Positions 4,498 to 58,246 of a stretch of DNA of 64,000 nt are shown here, piece by piece. Within the stretch, counting starts at the first letter, position 1, and every line of letters starts with the position of its first letter. The position numbers were made by a program, and so were the translations under genes. The DNA is taken from the NCBI GenBank assembly GCA_964403045.1, contig CAYOEP010000001.1, positions 9,009-73,008 of the forward strand. The letters run 5' to 3'. The notes beneath the pieces were generated by a model. That model searched no databases, was not told the DNA's origin, and saw only the letters and a program-made list of their open reading frames with translations. This stretch comes from an uncultured Candidatus Saccharibacteria bacterium (GTDB lineage Bacteria > Patescibacteriota > Minisyncoccia > UBA6257 > 2-01-FULL-56-20).

Positions 4498-4502
4498 AGG
4501 CG

Positions 4503-5225: not shown

Positions 5226-5290
5226 AGAGATGGTAAGATTTTTGCTGCTTTAATTATATCCTGAGGGGGGCAAAGAGAAAAATGTTGTGG

Positions 5291-5794: not shown

Positions 5795-5875
5795 AGCTTT
5801 GCTACCAGTATACCGCAGAATGGCCTGCCGCTACACTCTCGTCTCGCGGCTCTTAGGAGCGCTTTTGGGGAGATG

Positions 5876-6898: not shown

Positions 6899-6918
6899 AA
6901 GGAGTTAATAGGAGTTAA

Positions 6919-9171
6919 TTATGACGACGGATGTTCTTCGCTTGTGACGTTGCCCTTTTCATCAAAGGTGGTGCGAGAACGTACATTCCTCGGCGCCTCT
7001 TCAAGGTTTTCTTTGTCCACCGGCCTTCCCGACGCATCGTAGAGGACCACTTTTTCTTTTGTTGGTTCTGGGGATTTCTTCTCAGCCGAAGGCGTGCCGC
7101 CTTTCAGGAAAATCTCCAGCTCTTTCTCTCCCCGGATGCCAAGGATATTAAGCGCAGCGTTGCTGTTGAACCAGCGGCGGTTTTGCGGGCTGAAGTGCTC
7201 CGGCTTGAGCCCGATATCTTGAGCAGTCTTCTGGTAGGCGCCAAGCGCGTTGTTTTTAGCGAGTTCTTTAAAGAATTCCGACAAATTGTGCGGCGAGAAT
7301 CCCTTCGCAATGCCCAGTATAATTTCTGCCCGGAGAGAATGCAGACCAGCAGCATCCAGTCCATATGGAGTTTTGCCCTTTTTGATATCTTCCTCGCTGA
7401 CGGAAAAGATCTTTGAGAGAGCTTCCGGGCTTGCGGCCTTGAGAGCTTTCTCCTTCTTTTCTTTGAGTTTTTGAATTTCTTCTGCAGGGGCGCCGCGTTT
7501 TTCGGCGGCTTCGAGTTCTTGTTTTGCTTCCACGAGAGCAACGCCGGACTTTCCGCGAAGTTCTTCAAATGTCTTGGCACGGTGGAAGCGCTTAAACTTC
7601 CCTGCATTCTCTTTCGAGAGTAATTTCTCGGCTCCTTGTACTTCATTGAGTCGCCCCGCCTTATTGATGAGCTCCAGCATTGCAATTTGCTCGGGGGTGC
7701 TTTTTGCTGCGTGCACTGATTTGATCATCTGGTCTACGCTCATCTTCTTCTCAAGGCGTGCCTTTTCTGCATCTACGAGCTTCTCTCCGTGGCTCCGGGC
7801 GATCGTTTCTAACCCTCTCCCTGCTCTCTTTGTAAGTCTGCCAACGACAGGCACACTGTGAAGTGTTTTAATCCACCCCTCTGCTGCCTCCTTGTTCTGA
7901 AGTTGTTCAGTGATTTTCTGACCTCGTTCTGTTCGCAACGGCGCAGTGGCTATTCTCCCCATGCCTCTCCCGATGCCTCGCGCTCCGCGCGCCGCTCCCA
8001 TGCCCATAAACCTTCCGCCTTTCTTCGCCCATGCCATTGCCGTTCCTGCTCCTGCAATAGAAAGCCGTTGTGCTACTACAAGTCCTCCCCATATAAGACC
8101 AACGACTACCGCAGATTGCAATCCTGCTTTCAGAATATGGGCGAAAGTCTCTGTTATGAACTGAACTATGCCTTTATAGGAATCGCCTTTCGTTGCTGCA
8201 TCGACGTAAGGCTCTGTTGCAACTCCCGCCATTGCTGCAACCCATAAAAAGAAAAGCATAATTGGCGCGAAGATGGTCCACTTGATGAATACCGACCACC
8301 ATTCACTCCAGTATTTTCTCGTAGTTGGAAAGACCCAAAGTACCCAGATAAGTGGCATGATAATAAGAAGAATAGAAAGCACTACATACCGTATGAGGAG
8401 CATTATCCCAATTGCCCCAACGACTACCGATGTCAGAGCAAGTGCAACGGTCATGAATCCGAGCACGACGATAACATAAAATACTCCTTCCGATTGCGCT
8501 GTTTCCGCGAATACCGATTTTAACTCATTAGCGGCTTGTTTATCTAAATGCCCGGAGCCCGGCTCATTTTCCGGCGTAAAAAACCGCTGGGGATTCAAGG
8601 CCCCCATAATCCTTATGGATAAGCCATCCGGTCCATTGAATCCCTTATCGATGATATATGAGGTAAAAGAATCTGCGGTCCCGATAATGGGCCCTACGAT
8701 CACGAGACTGAAGTTGACGAGAAGCGCGGCGATGATGAGCTTTGCGAAGGCTTTCTTGATGCCGTATTCTTGGACACGAAGAATAGTTGCAACAGCGATG
8801 ACAATTAGGATTGCAGCGAAGCCAAGGTTTGCGATAGAAAGTGATGCCTGAAAACCGTTTTCAACAGTTAGATTGTTATTGAGAATATTCTTGCTTACTT
8901 CGAGAATGAGGTCGATAAAGAAGAATTCCACGTTGAGGATGAACGCGAAAAATGTCGCTATTGCTGAGGCGAGCATTCCGACCACATAGCCGAAGAACCA
9001 TTGGAGGGCGCTCTCAAAAGAAGCTCTCGCGGGCAAGGGAGAAGAAATTCCTACGAATGTTGCAACGGCAAGGAGCAGAAATAGGAAGGGGACTAAGGGG
9101 CGTTTCTTGAATTTTGGACGTACCTGCACAATGGTCAAAACCCTTCGCTTTTTTGATGGTTGTATTGCCAT
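6919..9171 (-). CDS. VirB6/TrbL-like polytopic membrane protein with long cytoplasmic C-terminal extension
   Basis: At least 7 TM helices in the N-terminal 400 aa, followed by a Gly/Arg-rich segment (GMGAARGARGIGRGMGR) and a helical, charged C-terminal tail. It lies immediately upstream of the virB4 block. Confidence 0.55.
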   Translation of the reverse strand: MAIQPSKKRRVLTIVQVRPKFKKRPLVPFLFLLLAVATFVGISSPLPARASFESALQWFFGYVVGMLASAIATFFAFILNVEFFFIDLILEVSKNILNNNLTVENGFQASLSIANLGFAAILIVIAVATILRVQEYGIKKAFAKLIIAALLVNFSLVIVGPIIGTADSFTSYIIDKGFNGPDGLSIRIMGALNPQRFFTPENEPGSGHLDKQAANELKSVFAETAQSEGVFYVIVVLGFMTVALALTSVVVGAIGIMLLIRYVVLSILLIIMPLIWVLWVFPTTRKYWSEWWSVFIKWTIFAPIMLFFLWVAAMAGVATEPYVDAATKGDSYKGIVQFITETFAHILKAGLQSAVVVGLIWGGLVVAQRLSIAGAGTAMAWAKKGGRFMGMGAARGARGIGRGMGRIATAPLRTERGQKITEQLQNKEAAEGWIKTLHSVPVVGRLTKRAGRGLETIARSHGEKLVDAEKARLEKKMSVDQMIKSVHAAKSTPEQIAMLELINKAGRLNEVQGAEKLLSKENAGKFKRFHRAKTFEELRGKSGVALVEAKQELEAAEKRGAPAEEIQKLKEKKEKALKAASPEALSKIFSVSEEDIKKGKTPYGLDAAGLHSLRAEIILGIAKGFSPHNLSEFFKELAKNNALGAYQKTAQDIGLKPEHFSPQNRRWFNSNAALNILGIRGEKELEIFLKGGTPSAEKKSPEPTKEKVVLYDASGRPVDKENLEEAPRNVRSRTTFDEKGNVTSEEHPSS

Positions 9172-9180
9172 TACCTCTTT

Positions 9181-10932
9181 TTAGAGAATTCCTTTTCTTA
9201 TGATTTCATTGAGCCTAGCTTTCGCTACAGACTTCACAAGATCAATTATTGTTTTCATTATCAGCTCTGAATTTTGCCCTACCGTGTTTGCTGTCTTTTG
9301 AATTCTTTCTTGGGCAACTTCTTGAGAGAGGGCTTCGACGACGAATTTCGCAGGTGTAGTATTTTTCCATTCATCGCAAAGTTTAACTGCACATGTATTA
9401 GGAACTTCAGAAGTTTTACAGTCCAAAGTTCCCTCTATGTAATCTTCTCCATAGTCTACCTTCGGATCATCGCCCTTGCCAATATATGCTCTATGAGAAG
9501 AAACGCACACACGAGTAGGGCGAAATCCGTTTCCCGATTCGGCGTCGGATTTCTCTGCTTCTTGCTTTTGCGACGCCCTCAGACCAACTTTTTCCTTCAT
9601 TGTAACAAGAGCCCCAAAAATGTTATTCTGCGGTTTCAGCATTTCACCGTAAGCGACCCACCCCCCCGTTTCGAAGCTTCGGTAAAAGTCTTTTACGTTA
9701 CTCACTACGTCATCTAATGTACACTCTACGCCTTCTTCTGGGGGAACATTAGGAAGCGGAGTCGCAGCAATAGTGAGGAGTGGACCAAAGGAATTGCACA
9801 GGAAAGGCGCGCTTTCTGCAACAACTTCACCCGCCGCGCTCTTTGCTGCCTTTTTGAGAAATCCTTTCCAGTCAGTGACAAATTTCGGTTTTTTCCCGCC
9901 TCTAACCCACGCAAGCGTTTGCCTTGCAATGCCATTAATTATCTTTGACTTGGCACTCTCTAGTAATTCTTCGCCTATTACATCCAAAATCATTTGAGCT
10001 ATGTTGCCTGGGTCAAACACAATATCTCCGAGTCCTAAGAAGGCATGTGCTGTGGGGATAGTCATAAACCCCTTTATAAAAGCAATGAAATGACTTTCCT
10101 CATGCTTCTGCTTGAGCAAGGAAGAAGGGTTCAGGGCAGAATGTAGCTCTTGGGAAAGTTGGTGCGATAGATTCTGTAGTTCTTTTTTCTGGACGTTGAA
10201 GACAAGAAGGGACTTTAGAGGATCAGTTGAATTGACGAGCGTGGAAAGTTGCTTTATTTGGGCAATCAAAAGAACAAATTGCTTGTGGAAAGAAGAGAAT
10301 AGCTCAGGCGCATGCAGCTCTAATACTTCCTGGAGCATCTTCTCTAGCATGAGATTTGTAGCTATGGAAAGGGTTCCTGCTTCCTCCTTGTTGGCAGCAA
10401 TATCGGTAAGATTTTTGATAGCACGCGTATATTTGTTGAAAAACCCCTCAAGACGCTCAAGATAGCCAGATGTATCTGCGGACGGATCTATAATTGCCTG
10501 GGAAGCAATTTTCTCTGCCTTGCGTCGAAGCAACTGCAATTCTTGCTTTATTTCGGAAACTCGATCTGGCGTGAGAATGTCCGTAGAGTTTGTTTGAGCG
10601 AGATTCAATTGCTGCAGAATCTGCTCTTTGCTAAGCTTATTGGCGTCTTTCTCTTTGAGGAAAAGAGAAACTTTGTGTAAATCAATTGCAGTAATTTCTT
10701 TGATAACAGCGTCGGAAAACGCTTCAGTGAGGGTAAAGGGTTCGGAGGAAAGGGTTGCTGGGGGGATAGCTTCGGTGCCGATAGCATTGACAGGGACAGT
10801 CGTCTGGACGTCCTGCGGCGGCGCGGAGGAGTGCGCAGAGAATGAAGAAGAGAAAAAGAACGAGAAAGAGCCCGTCGCTGTTGCTACGACAAGGAATGTG
10901 GCGGCAAGCGTTCTGAACGATGGATGCTCCAT
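9181..10932 (-). CDS. Large secreted Cys-containing protein, first gene of the T4SS-like operon (hypothetical)
   Basis: Signal peptide (MEHPSFRTLAATFLVVATATGSFSFFF), 583 aa, several Cys pairs near the C-terminus. Confidence 0.5.
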   Translation of the reverse strand: MEHPSFRTLAATFLVVATATGSFSFFFSSSFSAHSSAPPQDVQTTVPVNAIGTEAIPPATLSSEPFTLTEAFSDAVIKEITAIDLHKVSLFLKEKDANKLSKEQILQQLNLAQTNSTDILTPDRVSEIKQELQLLRRKAEKIASQAIIDPSADTSGYLERLEGFFNKYTRAIKNLTDIAANKEEAGTLSIATNLMLEKMLQEVLELHAPELFSSFHKQFVLLIAQIKQLSTLVNSTDPLKSLLVFNVQKKELQNLSHQLSQELHSALNPSSLLKQKHEESHFIAFIKGFMTIPTAHAFLGLGDIVFDPGNIAQMILDVIGEELLESAKSKIINGIARQTLAWVRGGKKPKFVTDWKGFLKKAAKSAAGEVVAESAPFLCNSFGPLLTIAATPLPNVPPEEGVECTLDDVVSNVKDFYRSFETGGWVAYGEMLKPQNNIFGALVTMKEKVGLRASQKQEAEKSDAESGNGFRPTRVCVSSHRAYIGKGDDPKVDYGEDYIEGTLDCKTSEVPNTCAVKLCDEWKNTTPAKFVVEALSQEVAQERIQKTANTVGQNSELIMKTIIDLVKSVAKARLNEIIRKGIL

Positions 10933-16083: not shown

Positions 16084-16272
16084 CTGTGGAAAAAATGTTT
16101 GTCGACAAACATTTTTTCCACAGATATCCGAATGTTTGTCGACAAACATTTGTTATTTTCTTTCAGCATATGTTTGCTGACAAACACTTGCTAGGAAAGA
16201 ATAATAATGTTTGTCGACAAACATTGTGTTGTATAAAATGTGGATGTTTGTCGACAAACACTTTTTCCACAG
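16084..16272. repeat. Array of five copies of the 18-bp perfect palindrome ATGTTTGTCGACAAACAT at 37-38 bp spacing
   Basis: Copies at 16095-16112, 16132-16149, 16170-16187 (degenerate TGCTGA), 16207-16224 and 16244-16261. Copy 1 is embedded in a 40-bp perfect palindrome (16084-16123). Copy 5 shares the TTTTTCCACAG arm. Confidence 0.9.
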
Positions 16273-26061: not shown

Positions 26062-26137
26062 GCGCCTGTAGCTCAACGGTGAGAGCAGCCGTCTTATAAG
26101 CGGCAGGTTCCTGGTTCGAATCCAGGCAGGCGCACCA
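26062..26137 (+). tRNA. tRNA-Ile (anticodon TAT)
   Basis: Acceptor GCGCCTG/CAGGCGC, D-stem GCTC/GAGC, anticodon stem GCCGT/GCGGC with loop CTTATAA (TAT at positions 34-36), T-loop TTCGAAT, discriminator A, CCA encoded. Confidence 0.65.
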
Positions 26138-36657: not shown

Positions 36658-37494
36658 TTGATGCGAAAGATAGACGGCAAGAAAATCGCGGAGCGCATTC
36701 TGGAAAAGCTTGCGGCAACACCGCCACCGCAAAAAAAATTCCTTGGCGCCGCGCTGGTAGGAAATAATCCTGCCTCCGAGGCGTTCCTGAAGAAAAAACA
36801 AGAGGCGGCGAAGGCGGTGGGCGTGGAGTTTCGCCTCTATCAGTTTCCTGAGGAAATTTCTGGAGACGTATTGCGCAGGAAGGTACGCGAGATTGCACTC
36901 CATACAACCTGTGGGGGGTTCTTGCTACAACTCCCCCTCCCACCGCACATCAATCCCCATTATGTGGCGAACGTTATTCCGAGAGAGAAAGACGTGGATG
37001 TGCTGGGTGAGCGTGCGAGGGGGGCGTTTTATAACGGGAGAAATTCTGTATGCCCTCCTGCCGTAGGAGTGGTAGAGGAGGTACTGAGAGAGGTAGATTG
37101 GCGGCTTGAGGAAAAGCTGCTTGCGGTGGTGGGGCTTGGATTTTTGGTGGGGCGCCCCATCGCGGTATGGGCGATGCGCCGCGCGCGGAACACCCTCCTT
37201 TTTCATAAAGACAGCGACTTCGCCCTCGTTGCCGAGGCGGATTTGGTAGTCACGGGAGTGGGAAAATCAGGAGTGGTACGCCCTGAAATGCTCAGGGAAG
37301 GGGCTGGGGTAATTGATTTTGGCTATGACCAAGGGCGGGGAGATCTCGCGCCGGAATGTTTGTCGACAAACATTGCGTTCTACACCCCTACACCCGGCGG
37401 CACGGGACCGATACTGGTAGCAAAACTGATAGAAAACTTTGTTCTTCTCAACGCGCCTGCGCCCCGCCCAGCGGCGCAAACTCGTGAGAGATAG
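36658..37494 (+). CDS. folD: Bifunctional methylenetetrahydrofolate dehydrogenase/cyclohydrolase
   Basis: IDGKKIAERILEKL at the N-terminus and VVGLGFLVGRPIA/GVVRPEM/TPTPGGTGPI motifs. It carries one copy of the 18-bp palindrome in a loop region (37356-37373). Confidence 0.9.
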   Translation: MMRKIDGKKIAERILEKLAATPPPQKKFLGAALVGNNPASEAFLKKKQEAAKAVGVEFRLYQFPEEISGDVLRRKVREIALHTTCGGFLLQLPLPPHINPHYVANVIPREKDVDVLGERARGAFYNGRNSVCPPAVGVVEEVLREVDWRLEEKLLAVVGLGFLVGRPIAVWAMRRARNTLLFHKDSDFALVAEADLVVTGVGKSGVVRPEMLREGAGVIDFGYDQGRGDLAPECLSTNIAFYTPTPGGTGPILVAKLIENFVLLNAPAPRPAAQTRER

Positions 37495-45817: not shown

Positions 45818-47125
45818 ATGCCGTTTGGCTTAACACAAAAACAGCTCGCCATTGTGCTCATCGGGGCTATTCTAGTGGGAGGCATTGGCTTTTTCCTCTA
45901 CATTAACATGGGCGGTAAGCGTAATAGCAGCGGCGTGCCGGGAGGGGATGTTATCGAGTTAACAGCATGGGGCCCCTTTCCTGAAGCGATGCTTAAGGAC
46001 GCAATCGATAGTTTTGATGGCGCCAAAATTATCTACACCCAAATCGAACCTTCGAAGTATAAGAAGAAGCTTTTGGATGCGCTTGCGGCAGGCAAGGGGC
46101 CGGATATCTACATGGTGGATAGCCGCGCGCTTCCTCAAGAGCTGGAGAGGATTGTGTCTGCTCCCGGCGGGAAGATTACGCCGGTAGAAGTGCAGCAGCT
46201 TTTTCCCGATGTAGTAACGCACGATTTTGTATATGAGTCAGAAGATGGCACTCCAAATATTTACGGGCTCCCGCTCTACCTTGACACACTTGCCCTTGTC
46301 TACAACAAAGATATTTTCAACCAAGAAGCCGTCCTCCGTCCTCCTGCTACTTGGGAGGAATTCCAGCAGGTCGTGCAGCATCTTCGTAAACTTAATCAGT
46401 ACGGGCAAATTACCCGCGCCGCCGCCGCGATAGGGGGCTCAAAGAAAAGCATCGCAAACGCGGTGGATATTTTAAACCTCTTGATGCTGCAAAATGGCAC
46501 AAAATTTGTGGACGAAAAGACAGGACACGCGGTTTTTGCTGGAGGCAGGGCTGGGGAAGAGGCGTTGAACTTCTATCTTCAGTTTGGCAACGCGGGATCC
46601 CCCTACTACACCTGGAATGATCTGCAGGGCGACTTCCTCCAGCGGTTTGTGGACGGAAAAGTGGCGATGATTTTTGCCTATAAGTCGCAGGTAAACGACA
46701 TTCTCGCCCGCGCCCCGTTCCTCAATTTTGCAATTGCCCCTGTGCCGCAGCCGGAAGGGAGGGAAGTGGACGTCAACTATCCTTCCTATTGGGGACTTGT
46801 AGTCTCATCGCAAACGAGGGAGCCGGAGGTGGCATGGGACTTTGTAGTGCACGCGGCAACAGACGAGGACGCTGCACAAGCAAGAATTACCGCTACCAAC
46901 TTGCCCCCCGCACTCAAATCGCTCTATGAGCCTTTGCTGAATGATCCTAGCTACTACGCGTTCGTACAGGAGGCACTGACGGCGAAATCGTGGCACCAGC
47001 CGGATGAAGAGCTCGTGCAAGAGATATTTTCTACAGCAATGCAGCGTGTGCTTGCGGGGAAAACGGATGTGCAGGGGGCGCTGCAGGAGGCTGAGGAGAA
47101 ATTGAACGAGGAAGTACTACAATGA
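45818..47125 (+). CDS. ABC transporter extracellular solute-binding protein (family 1, sugar-type), membrane-anchored
   Basis: N-terminal TM anchor and an SBP_bac_1-like pattern (GPDIYMVDSRALPQE...MIFAYKSQVND). Confidence 0.7.
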   Translation: MPFGLTQKQLAIVLIGAILVGGIGFFLYINMGGKRNSSGVPGGDVIELTAWGPFPEAMLKDAIDSFDGAKIIYTQIEPSKYKKKLLDALAAGKGPDIYMVDSRALPQELERIVSAPGGKITPVEVQQLFPDVVTHDFVYESEDGTPNIYGLPLYLDTLALVYNKDIFNQEAVLRPPATWEEFQQVVQHLRKLNQYGQITRAAAAIGGSKKSIANAVDILNLLMLQNGTKFVDEKTGHAVFAGGRAGEEALNFYLQFGNAGSPYYTWNDLQGDFLQRFVDGKVAMIFAYKSQVNDILARAPFLNFAIAPVPQPEGREVDVNYPSYWGLVVSSQTREPEVAWDFVVHAATDEDAAQARITATNLPPALKSLYEPLLNDPSYYAFVQEALTAKSWHQPDEELVQEIFSTAMQRVLAGKTDVQGALQEAEEKLNEEVLQ

Positions 47126-47595
47126 AGATAATGCATAGCTGGAAAAAAAAGGTATTTCCGACCTTTGTCGCCCTCGCCACAGGAATTCTGGTTGCCCGCC
47201 CCGCGAGTGCCCACAGCATTGGGCTTCCGTACTGGCCTTCCAAGAGTAACCCAATCGTGCCGTGCAGTGCGTTGGGAACTGGTGGAAGGCCGGCTTGCAC
47301 CAGCTGGTGCGATCTTATTCACCTTGCCCAGCACGTGATTTATTTTCTGCTCACGCTTGCTATCTTTATCGTCGGACCGTTTATGATAGGGGTAGGAGGC
47401 ATTATGCTGATGATTTCGGCGGGCGCTCCGGAGCGGATGGCGCAGGGCAAGAAGGTGCTCACCGGTGCGGTAATTGGAATGCTGATCGGGCTGTTTTCCT
47501 ATCTCATCGTGGGTACCATTTTCTTCCTTATTGGGATAACATTTGGATGGAGGGGAAGCAACGGCAACTGGTCGTCAATACAATGTAGAGTATGA
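47122..47595 (+). CDS. TrbC/VirB2-like pilin paralog 1
   Basis: Signal peptide, a Cys-containing segment, and two TM helices around the motif ISAGAPERMAQGKKVLTGAVIGMLIGLFSYLIV. Confidence 0.6.
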   Translation: MKIMHSWKKKVFPTFVALATGILVARPASAHSIGLPYWPSKSNPIVPCSALGTGGRPACTSWCDLIHLAQHVIYFLLTLAIFIVGPFMIGVGGIMLMISAGAPERMAQGKKVLTGAVIGMLIGLFSYLIVGTIFFLIGITFGWRGSNGNWSSIQCRV

Positions 47596-47957
47596 GGAAG
47601 AATCTTTTTCAGTTGAGGTGGTGCCTATCGGTGTTCAGGAGCTATGTGTATTCGCTGGGCATAGTGAGTATTGTGCAAGCAGGCGGGTATGGGTATGGGT
47701 CCTTTAACCTGCCAAGCCCTATCGGCTGTGAGGATTTTGGCTGTGTGGCAGAGAAGATCGCGATTGCCCTAAGCTATCTCGCCGTGCCTATCCTTACGGT
47801 AATGGTGCTTGTGGGCGGCTACCAGATTATGTTTTCCGCGGGCAACCCAGAGAAACTCAAAGCAGGCAAGCGCACAATCCTCTATGCGGCGATTGGCTTC
47901 CTCGTGGTGCTCATTGCCCAGTCGGCACGGCTTATCATTATGAGTATTTTTACTTAA
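47592..47957 (+). CDS. TrbC/VirB2-like pilin paralog 2
   Basis: The motif MFSAGNPEKLKAGKRTILYAAIGFLVVLIAQS lies between two TM helices. The start overlaps the previous stop. Confidence 0.6.
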   Translation: MRKNLFQLRWCLSVFRSYVYSLGIVSIVQAGGYGYGSFNLPSPIGCEDFGCVAEKIAIALSYLAVPILTVMVLVGGYQIMFSAGNPEKLKAGKRTILYAAIGFLVVLIAQSARLIIMSIFT

Positions 47958-48023
47958 TATGGTACAATAAAGAACGTGCATGTGGACATCGAAAGGTCGT
48001 TTATTTAAAATGAGGGCGAGTGC

Positions 48024-48443
48024 ATGAGACTAAGCAAAGAAAAATTTATAGGAATCTTTCGAGAAGGTGTAATAAAAGTAATTGTTCCAGTTACAATTAC
48101 TGTAGCAGGGCTTTGGCGAGCGCCTCTTGCTTATGGCCTACTAGCAGTGCGCAATGATGCGCCGCAGCTTAAAGTGCGGGACTGGAAAGGTATAGAAACT
48201 ATGCTTTGTAACTTTGCGGATACAATGGCGGTGCTCTTCTTTGTGGTTGCTGTAGTGTTTACATTAGTTGCGGCATATCAGTATCTTGTATCAGGGGGTG
48301 ATACCGAGAAAGTTAAGAAGGCGTCCAAGACTCTCACATATACAGCAGTAGCGGTAGTGGTGGCGTTGTTGGCGTTCGCATTTCCACGAATAGTCTTTTC
48401 TATTTTTGGGGGTGGTAGAATGAATGATGCGTGTGCGAGTTAA
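48024..48443 (+). CDS. TrbC/VirB2-like pilin paralog 3
   Basis: YQYLVSGGDTEKVKKASKTLTYTAVAVVVALLAFAF. Confidence 0.55.
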   Translation: MRLSKEKFIGIFREGVIKVIVPVTITVAGLWRAPLAYGLLAVRNDAPQLKVRDWKGIETMLCNFADTMAVLFFVVAVVFTLVAAYQYLVSGGDTEKVKKASKTLTYTAVAVVVALLAFAFPRIVFSIFGGGRMNDACAS

Positions 48444-48484
48444 CTTATATCAGTATAAATTGAGATCAAAGGTCGAAAAAGTGT

Positions 48485-48868
48485 GTGCAGCAAAAAACTA
48501 TGCGTAAGGTTGTAAAAGGGATGGCAAGTATCGCAGCGTTAGTAGTTCCGGTAGTAGCGCTCGCGGCTGGGAATGCAGGCGGGCCTAACCCTGTTCCTGA
48601 CTCTCCCATCAAAACCATTTCAGGTGCGCTCCAGCTTCTCTGTAGGATTTTTGCGTGGCTGTTTACCTTCTTCATCGTCATTGCCGTCATCTTCGTGTTG
48701 CTTGCTGCGTGGAAGTATCTCACTGCGGCAGGTGATGCGGACAAGGTGAAGTCAGCGAACCAGAGCTTGATTTATGCCGCGGTTGCGGTTGGCGTGGCGC
48801 TTATCGCAAAGGGAGTCCCCACGATTGTGTCTACATTGATGGGCGGGCAGGACATTACTGCCTGCTGA
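48485..48868 (+). CDS. TrbC/VirB2-like pilin paralog 4
   Basis: Signal peptide (ASIAALVVPVVALAAG) and the motif WKYLTAAGDADKVKSANQSLIYAAVAVGVALIAKG. Confidence 0.6.
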   Translation: MQQKTMRKVVKGMASIAALVVPVVALAAGNAGGPNPVPDSPIKTISGALQLLCRIFAWLFTFFIVIAVIFVLLAAWKYLTAAGDADKVKSANQSLIYAAVAVGVALIAKGVPTIVSTLMGGQDITAC

Positions 48869-51384: not shown

Positions 51385-52115
51385 CTGCGATCGCTTTTTA
51401 CGCACTTGGCACACTGCTTTGAGAGGGAATTGATCAGGAAGGTGCGGAAACGAGCTGGAGAAACGCCGAGTAGGCTGCGAAGCGATGAAGGGAATGCGCT
51501 GCCGGGCTTGAGGAAGAGCAGTCGCGGGAGAATTTGGGTGCCGTATTTTTCTGAGATGACATGGATAAGGTGGAAGGAAATAGTGTAGCCGCGTAGACGC
51601 ACGAAAGATTGCACTGTGATATCCTGCGAAAGTGCCTTTTGCAAAAATTGGTTAAGTTGGGCACGGGTAAAATCACATGGCTTTTCTTGGCGCGCCACAA
51701 ATAGGGCAATTCCCTCATCAACCCACCGTAGGGCTCGGGAGTTTATCGTTCGGTGAAAAATGTGAGCGAGCTCATGGGTGAGGATTTTTTGAAACGACGA
51801 TTTCCTATGGCAGCTTTCTTGGGAAATAACAGAGGGACTTAAAATGTAAATAGTGTTGCAATGCGCTTTTGTAATCGCCGCAACCCAATCAGGCGTATTC
51901 TTGGCAACTTTCTTATCGAGTTCTTTTCGTGAGTAAATAAGTTCGCATACTCCTTTCGGGGCAGGAGTGTTATAGAAACCCTCGAGCGTAGCAAGTAAGT
52001 TTTGCAGTGTTGTTTTGAGTGCGACAGGGTCATCGCAAGTTGCGGAGAGCAATGTCCATCGTTGCCCCCTCGACCCTGCGTTAAAAGGAAGACGCTGTTT
52101 GCGATGATTCAGCAT
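51366..52115 (-). CDS. Putative zinc metallopeptidase (HExxH) (hypothetical)
   Basis: The ILTHELAHIFH motif. Its 3' end overlaps tRNA-Leu by ~19 nt on the opposite strand. Confidence 0.45.
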   Translation of the reverse strand: MLNHRKQRLPFNAGSRGQRWTLLSATCDDPVALKTTLQNLLATLEGFYNTPAPKGVCELIYSRKELDKKVAKNTPDWVAAITKAHCNTIYILSPSVISQESCHRKSSFQKILTHELAHIFHRTINSRALRWVDEGIALFVARQEKPCDFTRAQLNQFLQKALSQDITVQSFVRLRGYTISFHLIHVISEKYGTQILPRLLFLKPGSAFPSSLRSLLGVSPARFRTFLINSLSKQCAKCVKSDRSAPGRI

Positions 52116-52163
52116 GCGCAGGAACTACACAAAAGGAGGCAGCTTTGTGGGATTCTTTGGTCA

Positions 52164-53051
52164 TCACTTCAATTTCCTACGCCGGCGGTGGAAGGCGCGG
52201 TGGACTTCTTGGAGTGCTTTGTTGGTGAGGTGGGTATAGATTTGGGTAGTTGTCACGCTTGCGTGGCCGAGGAGTTCCTGCACCGCGCGGAGGTCGGCAC
52301 CGTTCATTAAGAGGTCGGTGGCAAAGCTGTGGCGGATCATATGCGGGTGCACGCGGTGCGGGATTCCCGCCTCTGCCGCGCGGCGCTGTATCATCCTTTG
52401 CACCGCTCGGGGGGTGATTCTGCCGAGCACTCTGCCTTTTTTGGAGAGGCTTACGAAGAGCGCTTCTTGCGCGTCATCACGCCGCGCGAGATAGGATTGG
52501 ATCGCCGCTTTTGCGGTATCGGAAAGGAAAACTACCCTAATTTTCTCTCCCTTTCCCCGCACTGAGATTTCTCCTCTTTCGAACGCGAGCGTACGGTTGA
52601 GCGCGCAGAGCTCAGAAAGGCGGAGTCCTGTGGAGAACAATGTTTCCAAAATTGCCTTGTCGCGCAGGTCGCGGAGCGAGGAGCCGCGGACATCGAGAAG
52701 CCGCTCCAAGTCTTCGTAGTCGAGAATATCAATTTGACGCTTTGCTATTCGGGGGAGTTCTATTTTTTCGGCAGCAAGGGTTGTAATGTCGCGTTTTGCG
52801 AGGTACTTGAGAAAATTGCGAAGCGCGATGAGGTAGTAGGTCTGAGTAATTTTCTTTATCCCTTTTCGCGCGAGCGCGAGGCGGAACTTGCGGACTGTTT
52901 CCTCAGTAATATGCTCGGGAAGGGTAATGCGCGCAAAGGCAAGGAATTCGCGGAGATAGCGGGCATAATTCTTGCGGGTGGCAAGCGAACGGTTTTTCTC
53001 CAGCTCGAGGTAGTTGAGATAGTCGTCGAGCAACGTGGCGATTTTTGCCAT
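52164..53051 (-). CDS. xerC: Tyrosine recombinase XerC/XerD family
   Basis: N-terminal SAM-like core-binding domain; catalytic R...HxxR...Y ([36 protein letters not shown]). Confidence 0.85.
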
Positions 53052-53155
53052 TTCCTATATTGTACGACACTTTTTCTCCTGAAGGAAGACAAGGTAGCAG
53101 CAGTGCGGCGCCGTGCCACTTGCGCTTTTCTCATAATTGGGGTAGAATTCCACCA

Positions 53156-53422
53156 ATGCTTTCCAAGCGCACGAAATCGAAACTGGTCAAGGAATTTCAG
53201 ATACACGAGAAGGACACTGGTTCTGCGGAGGTGCAGATTGCTTTTCGCACCAAGCAGATTGAGGAGCTCGTGCGGCACCTCAAGAAGCATCCGAAGGACA
53301 ACCATTCCCGCCGCGGTCTCCTCAAAATGGTGGGACATCGCCGTCGTCTCTTGCAGTACCTCAAGCGCACCGACCCTAAAAGCTACGAGAAGGTGGTGAC
53401 AAAGTTGAATCTAAGGAAGTGA
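53156..53422 (+). CDS. rpsO: 30S ribosomal protein S15
   Basis: [48 protein letters not shown]. Confidence 0.9.
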
Positions 53423-53964
53423 GTGTGAGAAATAAGGCAACGACCACAGCCTCGGATTTTTACTCCAGCCAACGCGTGGGTATTTTTGTAGATGTGCAGA
53501 ATCTTTATCACTCCGCGAAGAATCTCTATCAGAGTAGGATTAACTACAAAGAGCTACTGCGTGCACTTGTGGGAGGGCGCAAGCTGATTCGTGCGGTAGC
53601 GTATGTGGTGAAAAGCGATGCCTCCACCGGCGAGGGGTCGTTTTTTGACGCGCTGGAGAAGTCAGGACTGGAACTGCGCTCAAAGGATTTACAGGTGTAC
53701 CCCGACGGGATGAAAAAGGCAGATTGGGATGTGGGGCTTGCGGTGGATGCGATTCGGATGTCAGCCTTCCTCGATGTGGTAGTGCTGGTTACAGGCGATG
53801 GCGATTTTGTGCCGCTCGTGGAGTATTTGAAGTGGGGGACAGGGCGACTGGTTGAGGTTGCAGCAATTCACAAAACTGCATCCTCCAAGCTCCGCGAGGC
53901 GGCGGATCGGTTCTACAACATCGAGGATATTCCCCGAATCTTCATCAAGAAGAAAATTGTTTAG
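53419..53964 (+). CDS. NYN-domain (LabA-like) predicted ribonuclease
   Basis: [11 protein letters not shown]...LIRAVAYV...[14 protein letters not shown] has the NYN/LabA acidic residue pattern. Confidence 0.75.
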
Positions 53965-53976
53965 CAAGCTTTTTCT

Positions 53977-56118
53977 ATGTCAATTCACGAAAAACGTACG
54001 TTTTCGGTTGATGTTGGCGGCTCGCCGCTCCGCTTAGAAATATCCTCCCTCGCGGAGCGTGCCAGCGCTGCAGTGCTTGCGCGCCATGGCGAAACTGCCG
54101 TACTGGTGACGGTGGTAGTGGGCAAGAAAGATGCGGACGTGAATTATGTGCCCTTGCGGGTGGACTACGAGGAAAGGTTTTACGCCGCTGGCAAGATTAT
54201 TGGGAGCAGATTTATCCGCCGCGAGGGGCGCCCTTCTGAGGAAGCGATTTTGACCGGGAGGCTAGTGGATCGCGCTATTCGACCTCTGTTTCCCAAGCAT
54301 CTCCGCCGCGAGGTGCAAGTTGTTGCAACAGTCCTTGCCTACGATGAGGAGCATGATCCGGACTTTCCCGGCCTTATCGCCGCCTCTGTGGCACTTGGCA
54401 TTTCTGAAGCGCCTTGGAATGGGCCGGTGGGCGGCGTGCGCGTTGCCTTAGTGGATGGAAAAGAAATTCTTGCTCCTACTCGTACGCAGATCGAGCGTGC
54501 AAGCTGTCATAGCTTTGTCGCGGGCGTGCAGGGAAAGATCAATATGGTGGAATTTGAAGGGAGAGAGGCCTCTGAAGAGCAGGTGCTTGCACTTTTTGCT
54601 TGCGCGCAGAAAGAAATTGACAAACTCGTGGATTTTCAGAGGAAGATTATCGCCGAGCTCGGCAAGCAGAAGTTAGAAGTGGTACCACCTTCGCACCCCG
54701 AACTTGAGCGGGAAGTACAGGAGTTCCTTGCTCCAAGAATGGAAGCCGCCGTGTTTCATTCACAAATAGCGGGCGAGGGAGGGCTTGCGTCTCTGAAAGA
54801 GGAGCTACGAGCGCACTTGGAGGCGCGCATCAAAGAAGGCGCGCTCCCGCCCGACACAAATTTGAAGAACGCTGATCTCCTCTTTGAGGATGCGGTGGAT
54901 GCCTTTGTGCATAAAAGTATCCTTGAAGAGGAAAGGCGTCCTGACGGGAGGAAACTTGATGAGGTGCGGCAGCTGGAAGGCGCGGTGGGCATTTTCTCCC
55001 GTAACCACGGATCGGCGATTTTTGTGCGGGGGAGCACGCAGGCGTTTGCGGTGACCACACTGGCGCCTCCCGGGGCGGAGCAGCTTATTGAGACGATGGA
55101 GATGAGCGGCAAGCGAAGATTTATGCTTCACTATAATTTTCCTGCATACTCGGTAGGGGAAATCGGGGCATTCCGCAGCCCGGGACGGCGGGAAATTGGT
55201 CACGGAGCACTCGCCGAGAAAGCGGTGAAATATGTACTGCCGCCGCAGGAAAAGTTTCCCTACACGATTCGGGTGGTGTCGGAAATTCTTTCCTCCAATG
55301 GCTCTTCTTCGATGGCAACAGTATGCGCAGGCACACTTTCCTTGATGGACGCAGGCGTTCCTATTGCACGACCGGTGGCGGGAATTGCTATGGGGTTGAT
55401 GAAAGACGAGAAGGGGAATTACAAAATCCTTACCGATATTCAGGGCCCTGAGGATCACCATGGCGATATGGATTTTAAAGTTGCAGGCACAGAGCGTGGC
55501 ATAACAGCGATTCAGATGGACGTGAAAGTAGAGGGCGTGCCGCACAAAATTTTACGAGAAGCACTCGTGCAGGCAAAAAAGGCCCGCAATGAGATTCTCT
55601 CGTTTATGCGGACAGTAATTGCGGCACCTCGCCCCCAACTCTCGCCGCTCGTACCCAAAATTGTCCGCCTCCACATTGACCCTGACAAAATCGGACTTGT
55701 GATCGGCGCAGGAGGAAAAACAATTAACAGCCTCATTGCAAAGACAGGCGTACAGAGTATTGACCTCGAGGAAGATGGGAGCGTCTATATTGCAGCCGAT
55801 GACATGGAAAAAGCACATGCCGCGGCAAAGGAAATTGAAATGATGACCAAAGAATTCCACGAAGGAGATATAGTAGAAGGCAGAGTCTCCAAAATTCTCG
55901 ATTTTGGTGCTATTGTAGATTTAGGCGGCGGGCAGGATGGGATGGTGCATGTCTCTGAGCTGAAGAATGGTTATGTGAAGGAGGTCTCTGATGTAGTGAA
56001 GGAAGGCGATGTTGTGAAGGCAAAAGTAATTAAGGTAGATCCTGCCACCGGTCGCATAGGGCTTTCGCTAAAGCGACTCGATGCGGAGCATGGCAAAAAG
56101 TCGCGACACACTCAGTGA
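53977..56118 (+). CDS. pnp: Polyribonucleotide nucleotidyltransferase (PNPase)
   Basis: Two RNase PH domains (including GDMDFKVAGTERGITAIQMDVK), plus KH and S1 C-terminal domains. Confidence 0.95.
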   Translation: MSIHEKRTFSVDVGGSPLRLEISSLAERASAAVLARHGETAVLVTVVVGKKDADVNYVPLRVDYEERFYAAGKIIGSRFIRREGRPSEEAILTGRLVDRAIRPLFPKHLRREVQVVATVLAYDEEHDPDFPGLIAASVALGISEAPWNGPVGGVRVALVDGKEILAPTRTQIERASCHSFVAGVQGKINMVEFEGREASEEQVLALFACAQKEIDKLVDFQRKIIAELGKQKLEVVPPSHPELEREVQEFLAPRMEAAVFHSQIAGEGGLASLKEELRAHLEARIKEGALPPDTNLKNADLLFEDAVDAFVHKSILEEERRPDGRKLDEVRQLEGAVGIFSRNHGSAIFVRGSTQAFAVTTLAPPGAEQLIETMEMSGKRRFMLHYNFPAYSVGEIGAFRSPGRREIGHGALAEKAVKYVLPPQEKFPYTIRVVSEILSSNGSSSMATVCAGTLSLMDAGVPIARPVAGIAMGLMKDEKGNYKILTDIQGPEDHHGDMDFKVAGTERGITAIQMDVKVEGVPHKILREALVQAKKARNEILSFMRTVIAAPRPQLSPLVPKIVRLHIDPDKIGLVIGAGGKTINSLIAKTGVQSIDLEEDGSVYIAADDMEKAHAAAKEIEMMTKEFHEGDIVEGRVSKILDFGAIVDLGGGQDGMVHVSELKNGYVKEVSDVVKEGDVVKAKVIKVDPATGRIGLSLKRLDAEHGKKSRHTQ

Positions 56119-56122
56119 GATA

Positions 56123-56434
56123 ATGGCGGAGAATCCCTCCCAAAATACTTCAGGAATAATTCCTTCCTCGCCGGAATTGAAGGTGCGGACAATGCGAGGC
56201 GACCTTGCTTCAATTGCGACGCGTGCTTCGGAAATCGAGCAGGGTAGTGTTCCGGTACCGCAGCAAGCTGCGGATTTTCAGGCACCGTTTGTGGCAGAAG
56301 AAGACACGCGCGAGCAGTCATGGCTCAAAAAGCACGCGCGCTTGCTGGTGGTGCTCGGGCTGATTGCACTCGCAGCCGCTGCAGGGGCAATTTTCATTGC
56401 GTTTGTTCTTCCTGCCTTACGGGGAAGCAGTTAA
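56123..56434 (+). CDS. Small C-terminally TM-anchored protein (hypothetical)
   Basis: C-terminal [23 protein letters not shown]. The start was trimmed so it does not overlap pnp. Confidence 0.35.
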
Positions 56435-57468
56435 TTCTCAGCTTTTTCGGGATTTTTAATTACTTGCTCGGTGCGCTTTTGAAGTTTTTTGAGAAGTGCT
56501 TTGTCGTCGCGCAGCTTGAGGCGCACGTTATCAAAGCCGGTGCCAATTCGCTCCCCTTCAAAGAAATAGCTGGATCCGGAACGGGTCACTACGCCGCACT
56601 TGATAGCGGCGTTGAGCACATCTGCTTCATAGGAAATGCCTTTCCCGTACATAATGTCGAACTCGGCAAACTTGAAAGGAGGAGCGACTTTATTTTTCAC
56701 CACTTTTGCCTTCACACGGGTGCCCACTACTTCTTCTCCTTTCTTCACCTGGGCGGTACGGCGGACATCAATGCGCACTGACGAATAGAACTTCAGCGCC
56801 TTGCCGCCGGGCGTAGTTTCGGGATTGCCAAAAAACACACCAACTTGCATGCGGATTTGGTTGATAAAGAGGATAGCAGTTTGGGTTTTCGAGGCGATTG
56901 CGGTGAGTTTGCGGAGTGCCTGGGACATCATCCGGGCCTGCAGGCCAATGAACTGTGCACCCATTTCTCCTTCAATTTCCGCGCGCGGCGTAAGTGCGGC
57001 AACAGAGTCTACCACAACTACCGAGAAGAGCTTAGAGCGCACGAGACTTTCCAAAATATTGAGCGCCTCCTCGCCATTGTCTGGCTGAGAGATGATGAGA
57101 TCATCAACTTTCACGCCGAGGCGGCGGGCATATTCAGGGTCGAGTGCGTGCTCGGCGTCGATGAATGCTGCCCTGCCGCCCTTCTTTTGCGCTTGAGCAA
57201 TCACATTGAGTGCGAGCGTGGTTTTGCCGCTTCCCTCAGGCCCGAAAATCTCTACGATGCGTCCCCGGGGGATGCCTCCCACCCCGAGTGCGAGGTCGAG
57301 CGAGAAAGAGCCAGTGGGGATGACAGCAACATCTACCTTGCGGGTTTCACCCAATCGCATTACTGACCCTTCGCCGTACTTCTCGCGCAGGGAAGCAACA
57401 AGCTGAGCGATATCGCTCGCTTCCTCAGATGATGTGCCTTTTTTTGTTTTCTTCTTTGCTGCTGCCAT
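56431..57468 (-). CDS. recA: Recombinase RecA
   Basis: Walker [14 protein letters not shown]1/L2 loop regions and the [12 protein letters not shown] motif. Confidence 0.95.
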
Positions 57469-57511
57469 TCTTGCTTGATGGCATCATACCATACTTTCTC
57501 TGGGATGTCGC

Positions 57512-58246
57512 TTATTGAGAAGGATGGGTTTCGCTGCGGGGGATTACTTGAATTGGCGGTATATCTTGGGTAGATGCTTCAGGCTGGAATATTACACGCC
57601 GCCGCACTACGCGCTTTTGGCCGAGCAGCTTTTTTGCGGAGAACTCGACGACATTGAGGCCGGGGGAGAGCGGCACTTCTACGCTCCATGTTCCATCGGG
57701 AGCGGCGGGGATTTCTTCACCATTGAGGAAAAGCCGCGCTCCCGGTGCCACCCGTCCTTCGAAGAGAATTTCTTGGTGCGAGGTTACAACTTGTTCTTCT
57801 TGGGGAAATGAAATTTGAAGCTCGGGGATGCCCACGATGCTCGGGAGGCGCACTGCGAGGTAGAGTGCGAGCGCGAGGATTACAATTCCAGCTCCCCACA
57901 GCGCCTTGCGGACGGGTTTTTGAGCGAATCGATTGCGAGGGAGCATATCGTGAGGACCTGAGTCCTCAAGAAGATTTTGCGCTCTGAGCGATTGCCACCA
58001 TTCTTCGCCGTCGAAGTCGAGAATCCTGCCAAGCGTGATGAGATAGCCGCGCACATAGGGGGCGGGAGGAAGTTTTTCAAAATTGCCGCGCAGGAGGTTT
58101 TCCAAATGGTGGAGCGCAATGTCGCTTTCTTCAGAAAGCTTCTTGAGGGAAATTCCCCGCGCTTTCAGCTTCTCACTGAAGAAGATTTCGAAATCCAAGC
58201 TTTGGGGCTCGGGGGCGTGGGGGCGGCGAGAATCCATATGCTCCAT
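57512..58246 (-). CDS. RodZ-like HTH-domain membrane protein
   Basis: N-terminal HTH (GISLKKLSEESDIALHHLENLLRGNFEKLPPAPYVRGYLITLGRIL), a single TM and an extracytoplasmic C-terminus. Confidence 0.6.
   Translation of the reverse strand: MEHMDSRRPHAPEPQSLDFEIFFSEKLKARGISLKKLSEESDIALHHLENLLRGNFEKLPPAPYVRGYLITLGRILDFDGEEWWQSLRAQNLLEDSGPHDMLPRNRFAQKPVRKALWGAGIVILALALYLAVRLPSIVGIPELQISFPQEEQVVTSHQEILFEGRVAPGARLFLNGEEIPAAPDGTWSVEVPLSPGLNVVEFSAKKLLGQKRVVRRRVIFQPEASTQDIPPIQVIPRSETHPSQ

Follow-up and report, generated by a model that had tools for sequence, protein, structure and literature searches.

A gene for a predicted NYN-domain nuclease between rpsO and pnp, and its conservation in Parcubacteria-type Patescibacteria

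Three genes are arranged head to tail on the plus strand of the analysed DNA, a stretch of 64 kb that we refer to as the window: rpsO, a gene for a NYN-domain protein, and pnp (Table 1). Both flanking genes scored well above the NCBIfam cut-offs, S15 with 123.4 bits against 63.65 (TIGR00952) and PNPase with 840 bits against 525 (TIGR03591). The same-strand trio reported in a preliminary description of this DNA, with a 181-aa reading frame from 53419 in the middle, was confirmed by these Pfam and TIGR profiles, and the protein motifs quoted there, including GDGDF, were found in the NYN translation. This is the only NYN gene in the window. The G+C contents of rpsO, the NYN gene and pnp are 0.52-0.53 compared to 0.523 for the window and thus nothing suggests a recent insertion of the NYN gene.

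Table 1. Positions of genes and sequence features at the rpsO-NYN-pnp locus of the window
Feature	Position	Strand	Remarks
Divergent XerC/D-type tyrosine recombinase gene	52164..53051	-	Pfam Phage_integrase 1.7e-40 and SAM-like N-terminal domains
rpsO, ribosomal protein S15, 88 aa	53156..53422	+	Pfam PF00312 Ribosomal_S15 3.5e-34; NCBIfam TIGR00952 equivalog
AAGGAAG, Shine-Dalgarno-like, for NYN gene	53413..53419	+	read from sequence; within last rpsO codons
NYN-domain protein gene, 179 aa from GTG 53425	53425..53964	+	ORF open from GTG 53419 = 181 aa
Predicted catalytic aspartate D25	53491-53493	+	numbered from 53419
Predicted catalytic aspartate D104	53728-53730	+	numbered from 53419
Predicted catalytic aspartate D127	53797-53799	+	numbered from 53419
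Spacer NYN/pnp, 12 nt, CAAGCTTTTTCT	53965..53976	+	read from sequence
pnp, polynucleotide phosphorylase, 713 aa	53977..56118	+	TIGR03591 equivalog 1.5e-252; Pfam RNase_PH (two), KH_1, S1
Small protein, hydrophobic C-terminal segment	56081..56434	+	without Pfam match; later ATG may be true start
recA	56431..57468	-	translation; convergent with operon

Two start codons are available for the NYN gene. GTG 53419 overlaps the rpsO stop codon (TGA, 53420-53422) as GTGA, which amounts to a 4-nt overlap of the genes, while a start at 53425 leaves a gap of 2 nt. The latter is probably the true start, because it is preceded by the Shine-Dalgarno-like AAGGAAG, which ends 5 nt upstream of it as read from the sequence, and because the NCBI protein P0001 of 179 aa, 99% identical to the window protein, fits this position. 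The overlap with the rpsO stop codon described earlier therefore applies to the longer reading frame, and the likely start lies 2 nt behind the stop; the gap before pnp, given as 13 nt, is 12 nt long. A Shine-Dalgarno-like sequence placed inside rpsO would permit translational coupling of the NYN gene. A scan of positions 52000-57600 for promoters and terminators gave nothing convincing within the operon on the plus strand.

The window protein is a single-domain, stand-alone NYN protein that matches Pfam PF01936 over the complete profile (positions 1-145 of 145; 2e-31, 109.9 bits, gathering cut-off 24.2). Its AlphaFold2 model (pLDDT 87.4) shows strands alternating with helices, in agreement with the three-layer alpha/beta/alpha fold and parallel central sheet of PIN-like proteins. 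The best structural matches were PDB entry 2QIP and the NYN domain of MARF1, followed by FEN-type PIN-like nucleases. D25, D104 and D127 align with D14, D92 and D115 of 2QIP, which correspond to D358, D426 and D452 of MARF1; none of the three varies among 25 NYN sequences, nor do D110 and D129, and the alignment of these sequences contains 72 invariant columns. Profile, predicted fold and catalytic aspartates thus uphold the earlier NYN/PIN-like assignment, and from sequence and model the protein is a predicted nuclease whose metal-binding site is intact. The hypothetical NYN equivalog of NCBIfam, TIGR00288, was matched over a partial stretch with 19.1 bits, far below the family cut-off of 178.45, and a PDB sequence search at E<=10 returned nothing beyond 2QIP. 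In a search of a representative library the NYN family comprised 165 clusters at E<=1e-30, 1471 at E<=1e-10, and 3778 at E<=0.001.

Within the PIN-like superfamily, the NYN domain considered here corresponds to the NYN.COG1432 or LabA-like group (PMC5499597). The protein behind 2QIP, VPA0982 of Vibrio parahaemolyticus, is a LabA-like NYN of this group that was crystallised by structural genomics. It has no known link to rpsO-pnp. The Patescibacteria subfamily that includes the window protein is conserved much more tightly. LabA of Synechococcus elongatus belongs to the same broad family (PMC5499597) and is known only genetically as a feedback regulator of circadian KaiC; no kai genes were recognisable in the window. 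Since the biochemical role of LabA is undefined (PMC5499597), and since the PADLOC model 'NYN' gave a domain-level match (8.4e-13), the window protein might be regarded as an RNA-binding regulator of the cyanobacterial LabA kind, devoid of catalytic activity, or as a toxin or defence nuclease merely sitting in the operon. We consider this very improbable in view of the invariance of the catalytic aspartates, the housekeeping nature of the neighbours with no antitoxin or defence genes nearby, and the fact that in many lineages the gene keeps its place and has the base composition of its host, unlike mobile defence genes. The PADLOC match (PDLC01154) is confined to positions 150-304 of a profile of 310 residues. 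A defence or toxin identity was rejected, as this match is at domain level rather than full length and a defence neighbourhood is missing.

More is known about the chemistry of two other NYN enzymes. According to Chi and White (2024, PMC11346440), the CRISPR-associated NYN protein of Bacteroides fragilis is a Mn2+-dependent, sequence-nonspecific endonuclease for single-stranded RNA that is inactivated by D13A. Like the window protein it is a prokaryotic stand-alone NYN, with a model that best matches 2QIP and MARF1 and with the same catalytic aspartates. The same report states that it cuts RNA back to a protein footprint and proposes it as a trimmer of exposed RNA, a job done in other species by PNPase, RNase R and RNase J2 (PMC11346440). 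It adjoins cas6 in a type III CRISPR locus, in contrast to the window gene in its housekeeping operon. For the NYN domain of MARF1, cleavage of single-stranded RNA with Mn2+ or Mg2+ is described (PMC6294520). This domain (PDB 6FDL, 5YAA) is, however, only a part of a large protein of eukaryotes, which also contains RRM and LOTUS domains, and it shares only 15-17% identity with the window protein. A further small stand-alone nuclease of the NYN-like group, Rae1/YacP of Bacillus subtilis (NYN_YacP, PF05991; PMC5499597), is described as a ribosome-associated, ribosome- and translation-dependent endoribonuclease (PMC12067863).

Gene order was compared in 80 species-level Patescibacteria genomes, at loci chosen by NYN similarity. 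Some of the loci come from complete genomes, among them OY970216.1, OY970175.1, OY970354.1 and JBLYPX010000001.1. By tblastn, 72 of the 80 genomes encode S15 just upstream of NYN, and 62 encode PNPase just downstream. ORF calls at 75 loci identified S15 as the immediate upstream neighbour in 60 cases, PNPase as the immediate downstream neighbour in 53, and both in 48, with median gaps of 9.5 nt (S15-NYN) and 25 nt (NYN-PNPase) and many overlaps of 4 nt and 1 nt. Independent gene calls with Pfam labels gave an identical map in the relative L081. The rpsO-NYN-pnp order is thus kept in relatives, which speaks against a LabA gene found at random loci, a possibility left open in the preliminary description. 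Because this order is conserved across many ultra-small bacteria of the Parcubacteria type, the NYN gene can be regarded as a stable operon member. Mean identities to the window proteins in 49 genomes were 60.5% for NYN, 58.3% for S15, and 51.0% for PNPase, a comparison that is biased because the loci were picked by NYN similarity; by sequence, NYN appears about as conserved as S15. This NYN family is catalogued as enriched in the Candidate Phyla Radiation (CPR), with 1840 of 2321 CPR genomes compared to 264 of 1198 other bacteria, and its function is listed as "unknown" (PMC6744442 Supplementary Data 1). Our literature search found no paper that joins the NYN domain with CPR, Patescibacteria or Parcubacteria, or that treats an rpsO-NYN-pnp operon.

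Homologues also occur in other contexts. In Doudnabacteria, close homologues are part of a tight block rmuC-NYN-PIN-uvrD/PD-(D/E)XK, while in DPANN archaea the genes next to the homologues vary. Several of these archaeal neighbours are DNA-related, and no conserved partner that could hint at a function was found among them. These contexts count against a role in RNA metabolism. A DNA-directed nuclease acting in recombination or repair, alongside the reported activity of PNPase on DNA ends, nevertheless seems improbable to us: the B. fragilis and MARF1 enzymes were both shown to cleave RNA, and the passages on their assays report none on DNA (PMC11346440, PMC6294520), small genomes are dense in information-processing genes and such neighbours are possible by chance, and the rpsO-linked NYN proteins form a sequence cluster apart from the Doudnabacteria/DPANN type (51% versus 61% identity).

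In E. coli, the region between rpsO and pnp carries the terminator T1, the promoter P2, and a pnp leader hairpin that is cleaved by RNase III (PMC5029454). In the window, rpsO likewise precedes pnp, but a coding gene of 540 nt fills the intergenic region, so that rpsO and pnp are not adjacent, and the leader is gone; the E. coli region encodes only the antisense sRNA SraG (PMC5029454). Some of the Patescibacteria relatives resemble E. coli more closely, having terminator-like hairpins and a long covarying hairpin before pnp. Such a covarying hairpin between NYN and pnp was found in 10 relatives. It is a long duplex with 92% of its positions paired and with compensatory changes in 12 of 17 pairs; in the relative L052, for example, it is located at 5007-5062. 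In the window, by contrast, a structured 5' leader of pnp is absent: the NYN/pnp spacer holds no significant structure and no promoter-like or terminator-like site on the plus strand, and a covariance model of the relatives' hairpin (R1) gave no match in the window. Rfam searches of the whole window, at gathering cut-offs and at E<=1, yielded tRNAs and chance matches only, with no S15 or pnp leader family, and those of 8 hairpin-bearing relatives yielded tRNAs only. An apparent resemblance to the relatives' hairpin (AGACAAGGTAG) in the region upstream of rpsO was dropped, since folding of 53052-53170 gave z = 0.12 and therefore no structure upstream of rpsO.

These results bear on the preliminary description, which hinted at pnp leader processing or RNA turnover in an organism that may lack the standard RNases. 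As a leader-processing enzyme, NYN would join in PNPase autoregulation and stand in for RNase III. This proposal draws on the position of the gene, which is that of the E. coli intergenic region with its RNase III-cleaved hairpin (PMC5029454), and is in line with the covarying hairpins of the 10 relatives. Processing of a pnp leader is nevertheless unlikely in this organism because the window has no leader: the spacer measures 12 nt and the hairpin model found no match. The long duplex of the relatives is an RNase III type of substrate, while the characterised NYN enzymes cut single strands (PMC11346440, PMC6294520), and NYN persists beside rpsO where pnp is gone from the locus. RNase III, moreover, is widespread in this group. 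It was listed for 2068 of 2321 CPR genomes; the corresponding counts are 2025 for RNase J, 1977 for RNase Y, 1758 for YbeY, and 1257 for the RNase P protein (Meheust et al. 2019, PMC6744442 Supplementary Data 1). RNase E/G, present in 2 of the 2321, is the sole standard RNase missing from the group (PMC6744442 Supplementary Data 1). The idea of an organism lacking the standard RNases therefore finds no support in the group-level tables, and we rate the proposal as a whole as highly improbable. The relatives' hairpin, in turn, offers a route to asking whether these bacteria have PNPase autoregulation.

Within the 64-kb window itself, genes for RNase III, RNase J, RNase Y, YbeY, the RNase P protein or RNase E/G were not recognisable, and Rfam detected no rnpB. 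A protein-only RNase P of the PRORP or HARP type was considered as well and appears unlikely, given the distribution of the RNase P protein stated above; no PRORP or HARP structures were among the fold matches listed, and the window protein consists of nothing but the NYN domain. To our knowledge, there is no experimental study of RNA decay in the Candidate Phyla Radiation.

The link of NYN to rpsO is tighter than that to pnp. At 5 related loci rpsO-NYN is kept and pnp is absent, and at others a terminator-like hairpin or a structured leader lies between NYN and pnp. The partnership of NYN and PNPase is therefore not obligatory, and the adjacency to pnp may simply follow from an insertion after rpsO. 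The protein might be a ribosome-specific nuclease made together with S15, either a factor of 30S biogenesis and rRNA maturation that trims exposed extensions of pre-16S rRNA or a ribosome-associated endonuclease that cuts RNA on the ribosome, with PNPase as a mere neighbour. The short and often overlapping junctions with rpsO, the pnp-less loci, the hairpins behind NYN in several lineages, and a conservation equal to that of S15 agree with this explanation. RimM and RimP, which act in 30S maturation, are largely missing from CPR bacteria, and RbfA is absent in about half of them (PMC6744442). Trimming to a ribonucleoprotein footprint by the B. fragilis enzyme (PMC11346440) also fits. Taken for itself, we regard the ribosome-specific explanation as rather unlikely.

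Our tentative preference is for a broader role in RNA metabolism, in which the NYN gene is a fixed part of the rpsO-pnp cluster in Parcubacteria-type Patescibacteria, passed on vertically, and encodes a metal-dependent single-strand RNA endonuclease that is co-expressed with S15 and PNPase and serves RNA processing or decay. Gene order with its tight spacing, sequence conservation, fold and catalytic residues are the observed part of this picture, and the enrichment in CPR and the chemistry of the two assayed NYN enzymes also speak for it. The absence of internal promoter-like or terminator-like signals from the window operon counts in its favour, and rpsO, NYN and pnp would be transcribed together in this organism. 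With a ribosome-binding site inside the end of rpsO, NYN may be translated in a coupled manner with S15. By analogy with the two assayed NYN enzymes, the protein would be a Mn2+/Mg2+-dependent endonuclease acting on exposed single-stranded RNA with little sequence preference. As a housekeeping enzyme it might introduce internal cuts in mRNA, possibly also in precursor or defective rRNA, and the resulting new 3' ends would be removed by PNPase, the co-expressed 3'-5' exonuclease. It would probably act alongside RNases Y, J and III, which these bacteria usually have, and not in their place.

A bolder version of this role is speculative and in our opinion unlikely. Here, the rpsO-linked NYN protein would be a core RNase of the Parcubacteria-type radiation that has so far escaped notice. 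Cells would produce this housekeeping endonuclease in large amounts, with its translation coupled to that of S15, and its near relatives would be those in Doudnabacteria and DPANN archaea. One possibility is that it has taken over steps of 30S and 16S rRNA maturation in lineages without RimM and RimP and often without RbfA; the other is that NYN and PNPase make up a minimal module of two enzymes for RNA degradation and nucleotide recycling in cells unable to make nucleotides. If so, the bacterial-archaeal identities of 51-61% would point to transfer of an important function between ultra-small groups.

These findings overturn nothing: the family of the protein, the chemistry it probably catalyses, and the genes on either side were known before. 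The rpsO-pnp pair is a textbook operon, and here a predicted nuclease gene is fixed inside it across a very large bacterial group. The gene can be cloned and is a tangible candidate for a housekeeping RNase specific to this lineage, and in-vitro tests are straightforward because the protein has 179 aa, a single domain, and clear active-site residues.

The surroundings of the operon are conserved as well. Recombinases of the XerC/D type are its conserved upstream neighbours, occurring at 43 of 80 related loci, and in the related loci listed their genes lie shortly before rpsO but on the other strand. Homologues of the small protein encoded downstream of pnp follow pnp in the related loci listed, and were found at 27 loci overall. 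In lineages without a local pnp, the protein encoded directly after NYN has an RT(M/F)..D(L/M) motif in common with this small protein, as judged by eye only. The wider conserved neighbourhood continues with recA, then a gene for a RodZ-like HTH protein, then ftsK, and the corresponding Pfam matches (RecA_N, HTH_25, FtsK) have the same order in the window and in L081.

The rpsO, NYN and pnp genes lie head to tail on the same (+) strand of the window, and profile matches to all three proteins bear out the presence of a predicted NYN nuclease gene between the other two. Base composition is uniform across the cluster, and a scan of the + strand found neither promoter-like nor terminator-like sites inside it. 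The preliminary description had the NYN gene overlap the rpsO stop codon and end 13 nt before pnp. The overlap holds for the GTG at 53419, but not for a second in-frame GTG at 53425, which is the more probable start. Because the latter is preceded by the ribosome-binding sequence AAGGAAG (53413-53419) and yields an ORF corresponding to a 179-aa NCBI protein (P0001, 99% identical), the NYN gene most probably starts 2 nt past the rpsO stop. The distance from the NYN stop to the pnp ATG is 12 nt.

The NYN assignment was upheld by the Pfam profile search and by a confident AlphaFold2 model (pLDDT 87.4, pTM 0.83). Searched with a profile of 25 relatives, solved structures gave a single match, 2QIP (VPA0982, a protein of no known function; E 2e-27). 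In Chi and White (PMC11346440), the catalytic aspartates D13/D118/D143 of the B. fragilis NYN enzyme are equated with D14/D92/D115 of 2QIP and D358/D426/D452 of MARF1. After correction for the 3-residue offset between the chain index of 2QIP and native numbering, the three 2QIP aspartates align in the profile alignment with D25, D104 and D127 of our protein (numbered from the GTG at 53419). These residues are invariant among the 25 aligned sequences, as are many basic residues. Both assayed NYN enzymes, MARF1 and that of B. fragilis, are endonucleases on single-stranded RNA (PMC6294520, PMC11346440). The former is active with Mn2+ or Mg2+ (PMC6294520), the latter requires Mn2+, acts without sequence preference and trims RNA to a protein footprint (PMC11346440). 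The NYN.COG1432 group was listed as 'function unknown' in the 2017 PIN-superfamily classification (PMC5499597). The protein did not reach the TIGR00288 cut-off and matched the PADLOC NYN model at the domain level only; a role as regulator, toxin or defence protein is highly improbable.

In a synteny scan, 80 loci were recovered, each species being represented by a single genome. Almost all are titled Patescibacteria, Paceibacterota, or Jorgensen-, Lipton-, Azam-, Moran-, Falkow-, Komeili-, Buchanan-, Taylor- or Zambryskiibacteria; the best database matches of the window protein were named Candidatus Parcubacteria and Liptonbacteria. By tblastn, 72 of the 80 loci have S15 just upstream of NYN and 62 have PNPase just downstream; contig ends truncate most of those lacking a match. 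In our own ORF calls S15 immediately preceded NYN in 60 of 75 loci, PNPase immediately followed in 53, and 48 had both neighbours. Hence the order is kept in relatives, which refutes a generic LabA gene found at random loci. Median gaps were 9.5 nt (S15-NYN) and 25 nt (NYN-PNPase), and overlaps of 4 nt or 1 nt were frequent. For one related locus, L081, an independent set of gene calls carrying precomputed Pfam labels gave the same map as the window: gyrA ... xerC(-), then S15, NYN, PNPase and an unknown gene (+), followed by recA(-), a gene for an HTH protein(-) and ftsK(-). Averaged over 49 genomes carrying the whole trio, identity to the proteins of the window was 60.5% for NYN, 58.3% for S15 and 51.0% for PNPase, a comparison favouring NYN, as loci were ranked by NYN similarity. 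In five loci (L047, L048, L049, L059, L072), xerC(-) and rpsO-NYN are retained but pnp is missing from the locus. The gene directly after NYN in these encodes a protein of one homologous group (cluster 8), which, judged by eye, has a motif in common with the small protein normally following pnp.

Long NYN-pnp spacers in relatives are strongly structured (z -4 to -9). Those of L071 and L054 open with a terminator-like element, a perfect GC-rich hairpin and then a run rich in T. A long hairpin with its 3' end close to the pnp start is common to 10 loci. RNAalifold on 8 seed sequences, whose selection for folding qualifies the covariation, gave 23 pairs, 18 with compensatory changes. In the 10 sequences 92.4% of positions were paired and 12 of 17 pairs showed double (compensatory) changes; none of 500 shuffles reached any of the measures, and shifted-partner controls were far lower. 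Nucleotides are conserved around an internal loop (A.A...AG / CU...A), and no Rfam family matched. A covariance model detected 2 more copies; every copy was on the + strand, between NYN and pnp. This hairpin may be a target of PNPase autoregulation or of RNase III. The E. coli rpsO-pnp intergenic region contains terminator T1, promoter P2 and hairpin R, which RNase III cleaves (PMC5029454). The relatives' layout of rpsO, NYN, terminator and/or hairpin, and pnp mirrors this arrangement, and NYN therefore falls between rpsO and the pnp leader. Terminator-like hairpins also occur between rpsO and NYN in some divergent lineages. The covariance model found no copy in the window, in whose lineage the leader is lost. 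The preliminary suggestion that NYN processes the pnp leader is unlikely to apply in the window and is very doubtful as the function of the protein. The spacers of L032 and L011 contain a different long hairpin built on GTCATTCCGAGCTTTGCG...AAAGCTCAGGATGAC (z -8.6 to -9.5), which resembles a repeated palindromic element and not the leader hairpin.

No rnc, rny, rnj or rne gene was recognisable within the 64-kb window, which holds a DEDD-type exonuclease-like and a YraN-like ORF. It had been proposed that the organism may be short of standard RNases. Group-level counts for 2321 Candidate Phyla Radiation (CPR) genomes and 1198 from other bacteria (Meheust et al. 2019, PMC6744442, Supplementary Data 1) do not support this: RNase III is present in 2068 CPR genomes (916 other bacteria), RNase J in 2025 (350), RNase Y in 1977 (694), YbeY in 1758 (916), the RNase P protein in 1257 (582) and PNPase in 2008, while RNase E/G is 'depleted' (2 versus 826). 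The NYN family, fam00139, is flagged as 'enriched' (1840 versus 264). Labelled 'unknown' and not mentioned in the paper's main text, it comprises 3861 proteins (median length 177 aa) and extends to archaea, with 29 DPANN genomes and 7 others. On these counts the CPR RNase set is Firmicute-like with NYN added to it.

The NYN gene is thus conserved, has an intact active site, and is tightly spaced and fixed between rpsO and pnp. The three genes would be co-transcribed, with NYN translation probably coupled to that of S15. The product would be a metal-dependent endonuclease of single-stranded RNA whose internal cuts may supply 3' ends to the co-expressed PNPase. We tentatively favour such a housekeeping role in RNA processing and decay. 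Because precursor rRNA and defective rRNA are PNPase substrates as well, this role overlaps with the main rival, a ribosome- or rRNA-specific function, which we regard as rather unlikely. The latter is favoured by the closer linkage of NYN to rpsO and by the absence of RimM, RimP and often RbfA from CPR (PMC6744442).

Homologues outside the rpsO context were found in Doudnabacteria and archaea. The former are very conserved (80-98% identity within the group) and lie in a tightly packed rmuC-NYN-PIN_3-uvrD/PD-(D/E)XK block, with rpsO not adjacent. In L088, where the block is partly duplicated, the gaps are 11, -1 and 0 nt. The block looks like an uncharacterised nuclease-helicase module. Single-domain NYN proteins of DPANN archaea (Woesearchaeota, Nanoarchaeota) and one Hydrothermarchaeota genome are 51-61% identical to bacterial ones. 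The DPANN proteins are highly conserved, the best 120 DPANN matches to a Woesearchaeota query showing 72-82% identity. Their neighbourhoods vary and often include FEN1, PolB, RNase HII or OGG. These neighbours, the Doudnabacteria block and the proximity of xerC, recA and ftsK would fit a role in DNA repair, which is nevertheless improbable. Doudnabacteria and archaeal sequences formed one cluster (61% identity), separate from the rpsO-linked type (about 51-55%). This degree of identity across two domains suggests horizontal transfer.

The NYN protein family and its probable chemistry are already known, as are the genes on either side, and the CPR enrichment has been tabulated (PMC6744442). Our literature search found no paper connecting NYN with CPR or with an rpsO-NYN-pnp operon. 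Three points appear to be new: that the gene order is fixed across Parcubacteria-type lineages, that NYN is more tightly coupled to rpsO than to pnp, and that a subset of relatives has a covarying pnp-leader hairpin. The gene is a clear experimental target, though not a conceptual surprise.

Coordinates of features in the window and, numbered within each locus, in related loci (L handles)
Source	Feature	Position	Strand	Remarks
Window	rpsO	53156-53422	+	88-aa S15; Pfam 3.5e-34; NCBIfam equivalog TIGR00952
Window	NYN ORF	53419-53964	+	181 codons; Pfam NYN (PF01936) 2e-31, whole profile covered
Window	pnp	53977-56118	+	713-aa PNPase; TIGR03591, 840 bits
Window	TGTTTGTCGACAAACA array	16096-16260
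Window	Sixth TGTTTGTCGACAAACA copy	37357-37372
Window	tRNA-Ile	26062-26137
Window	Membrane/secretion-type ORFs	426-10932
Window	Membrane/secretion-type ORFs	45818-48868
L042	Leader hairpin	1199-1253		between NYN and pnp
L050	Leader hairpin	5573-5642		between NYN and pnp
L051	Leader hairpin	5539-5629		between NYN and pnp
L052	Leader hairpin	5007-5062		between NYN and pnp
L053	Leader hairpin	5601-5664		between NYN and pnp
L055	Leader hairpin	5524-5582		between NYN and pnp
L061	Leader hairpin	3283-3345		between NYN and pnp
L070	Leader hairpin	5636-5718		between NYN and pnp
L073	Leader hairpin	2414-2478		between NYN and pnp
L075	Leader hairpin	5506-5565		between NYN and pnp
L087	Doudnabacteria block	3396-9948
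L088	Doudnabacteria block	98-1686 and 3961-8914
L056	Archaeal NYN	4664-5170
L074	Archaeal NYN	5001-5537
L082-L086	Archaeal NYN

Other features of the window include a 16-nt palindrome, TGTTTGTCGACAAACA, in five copies with a regular spacing of 37-38 nt, flanked by TGTGGAAAAAA and TTTTTCCACAG. The array sits upstream of a YraN-like gene and nusA, overlaps the 5' part of an ORF extension that is probably spurious, and could be an operator array or an iteron set; a sixth exact copy lies elsewhere in the window (chance expectation 0.02). The tRNA-Ile gene has the anticodon TAT (UAU). In most bacteria AUA is read by a lysidine-modified CAU tRNA, and this difference suggests an alternative decoding route in the organism. 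Several small proteins (121-157 aa) of the two membrane and secretion-type ORF clusters resemble proteins annotated as T4SS_pilin (PF18895) in L081, where these occupy the corresponding site downstream of gyrA.
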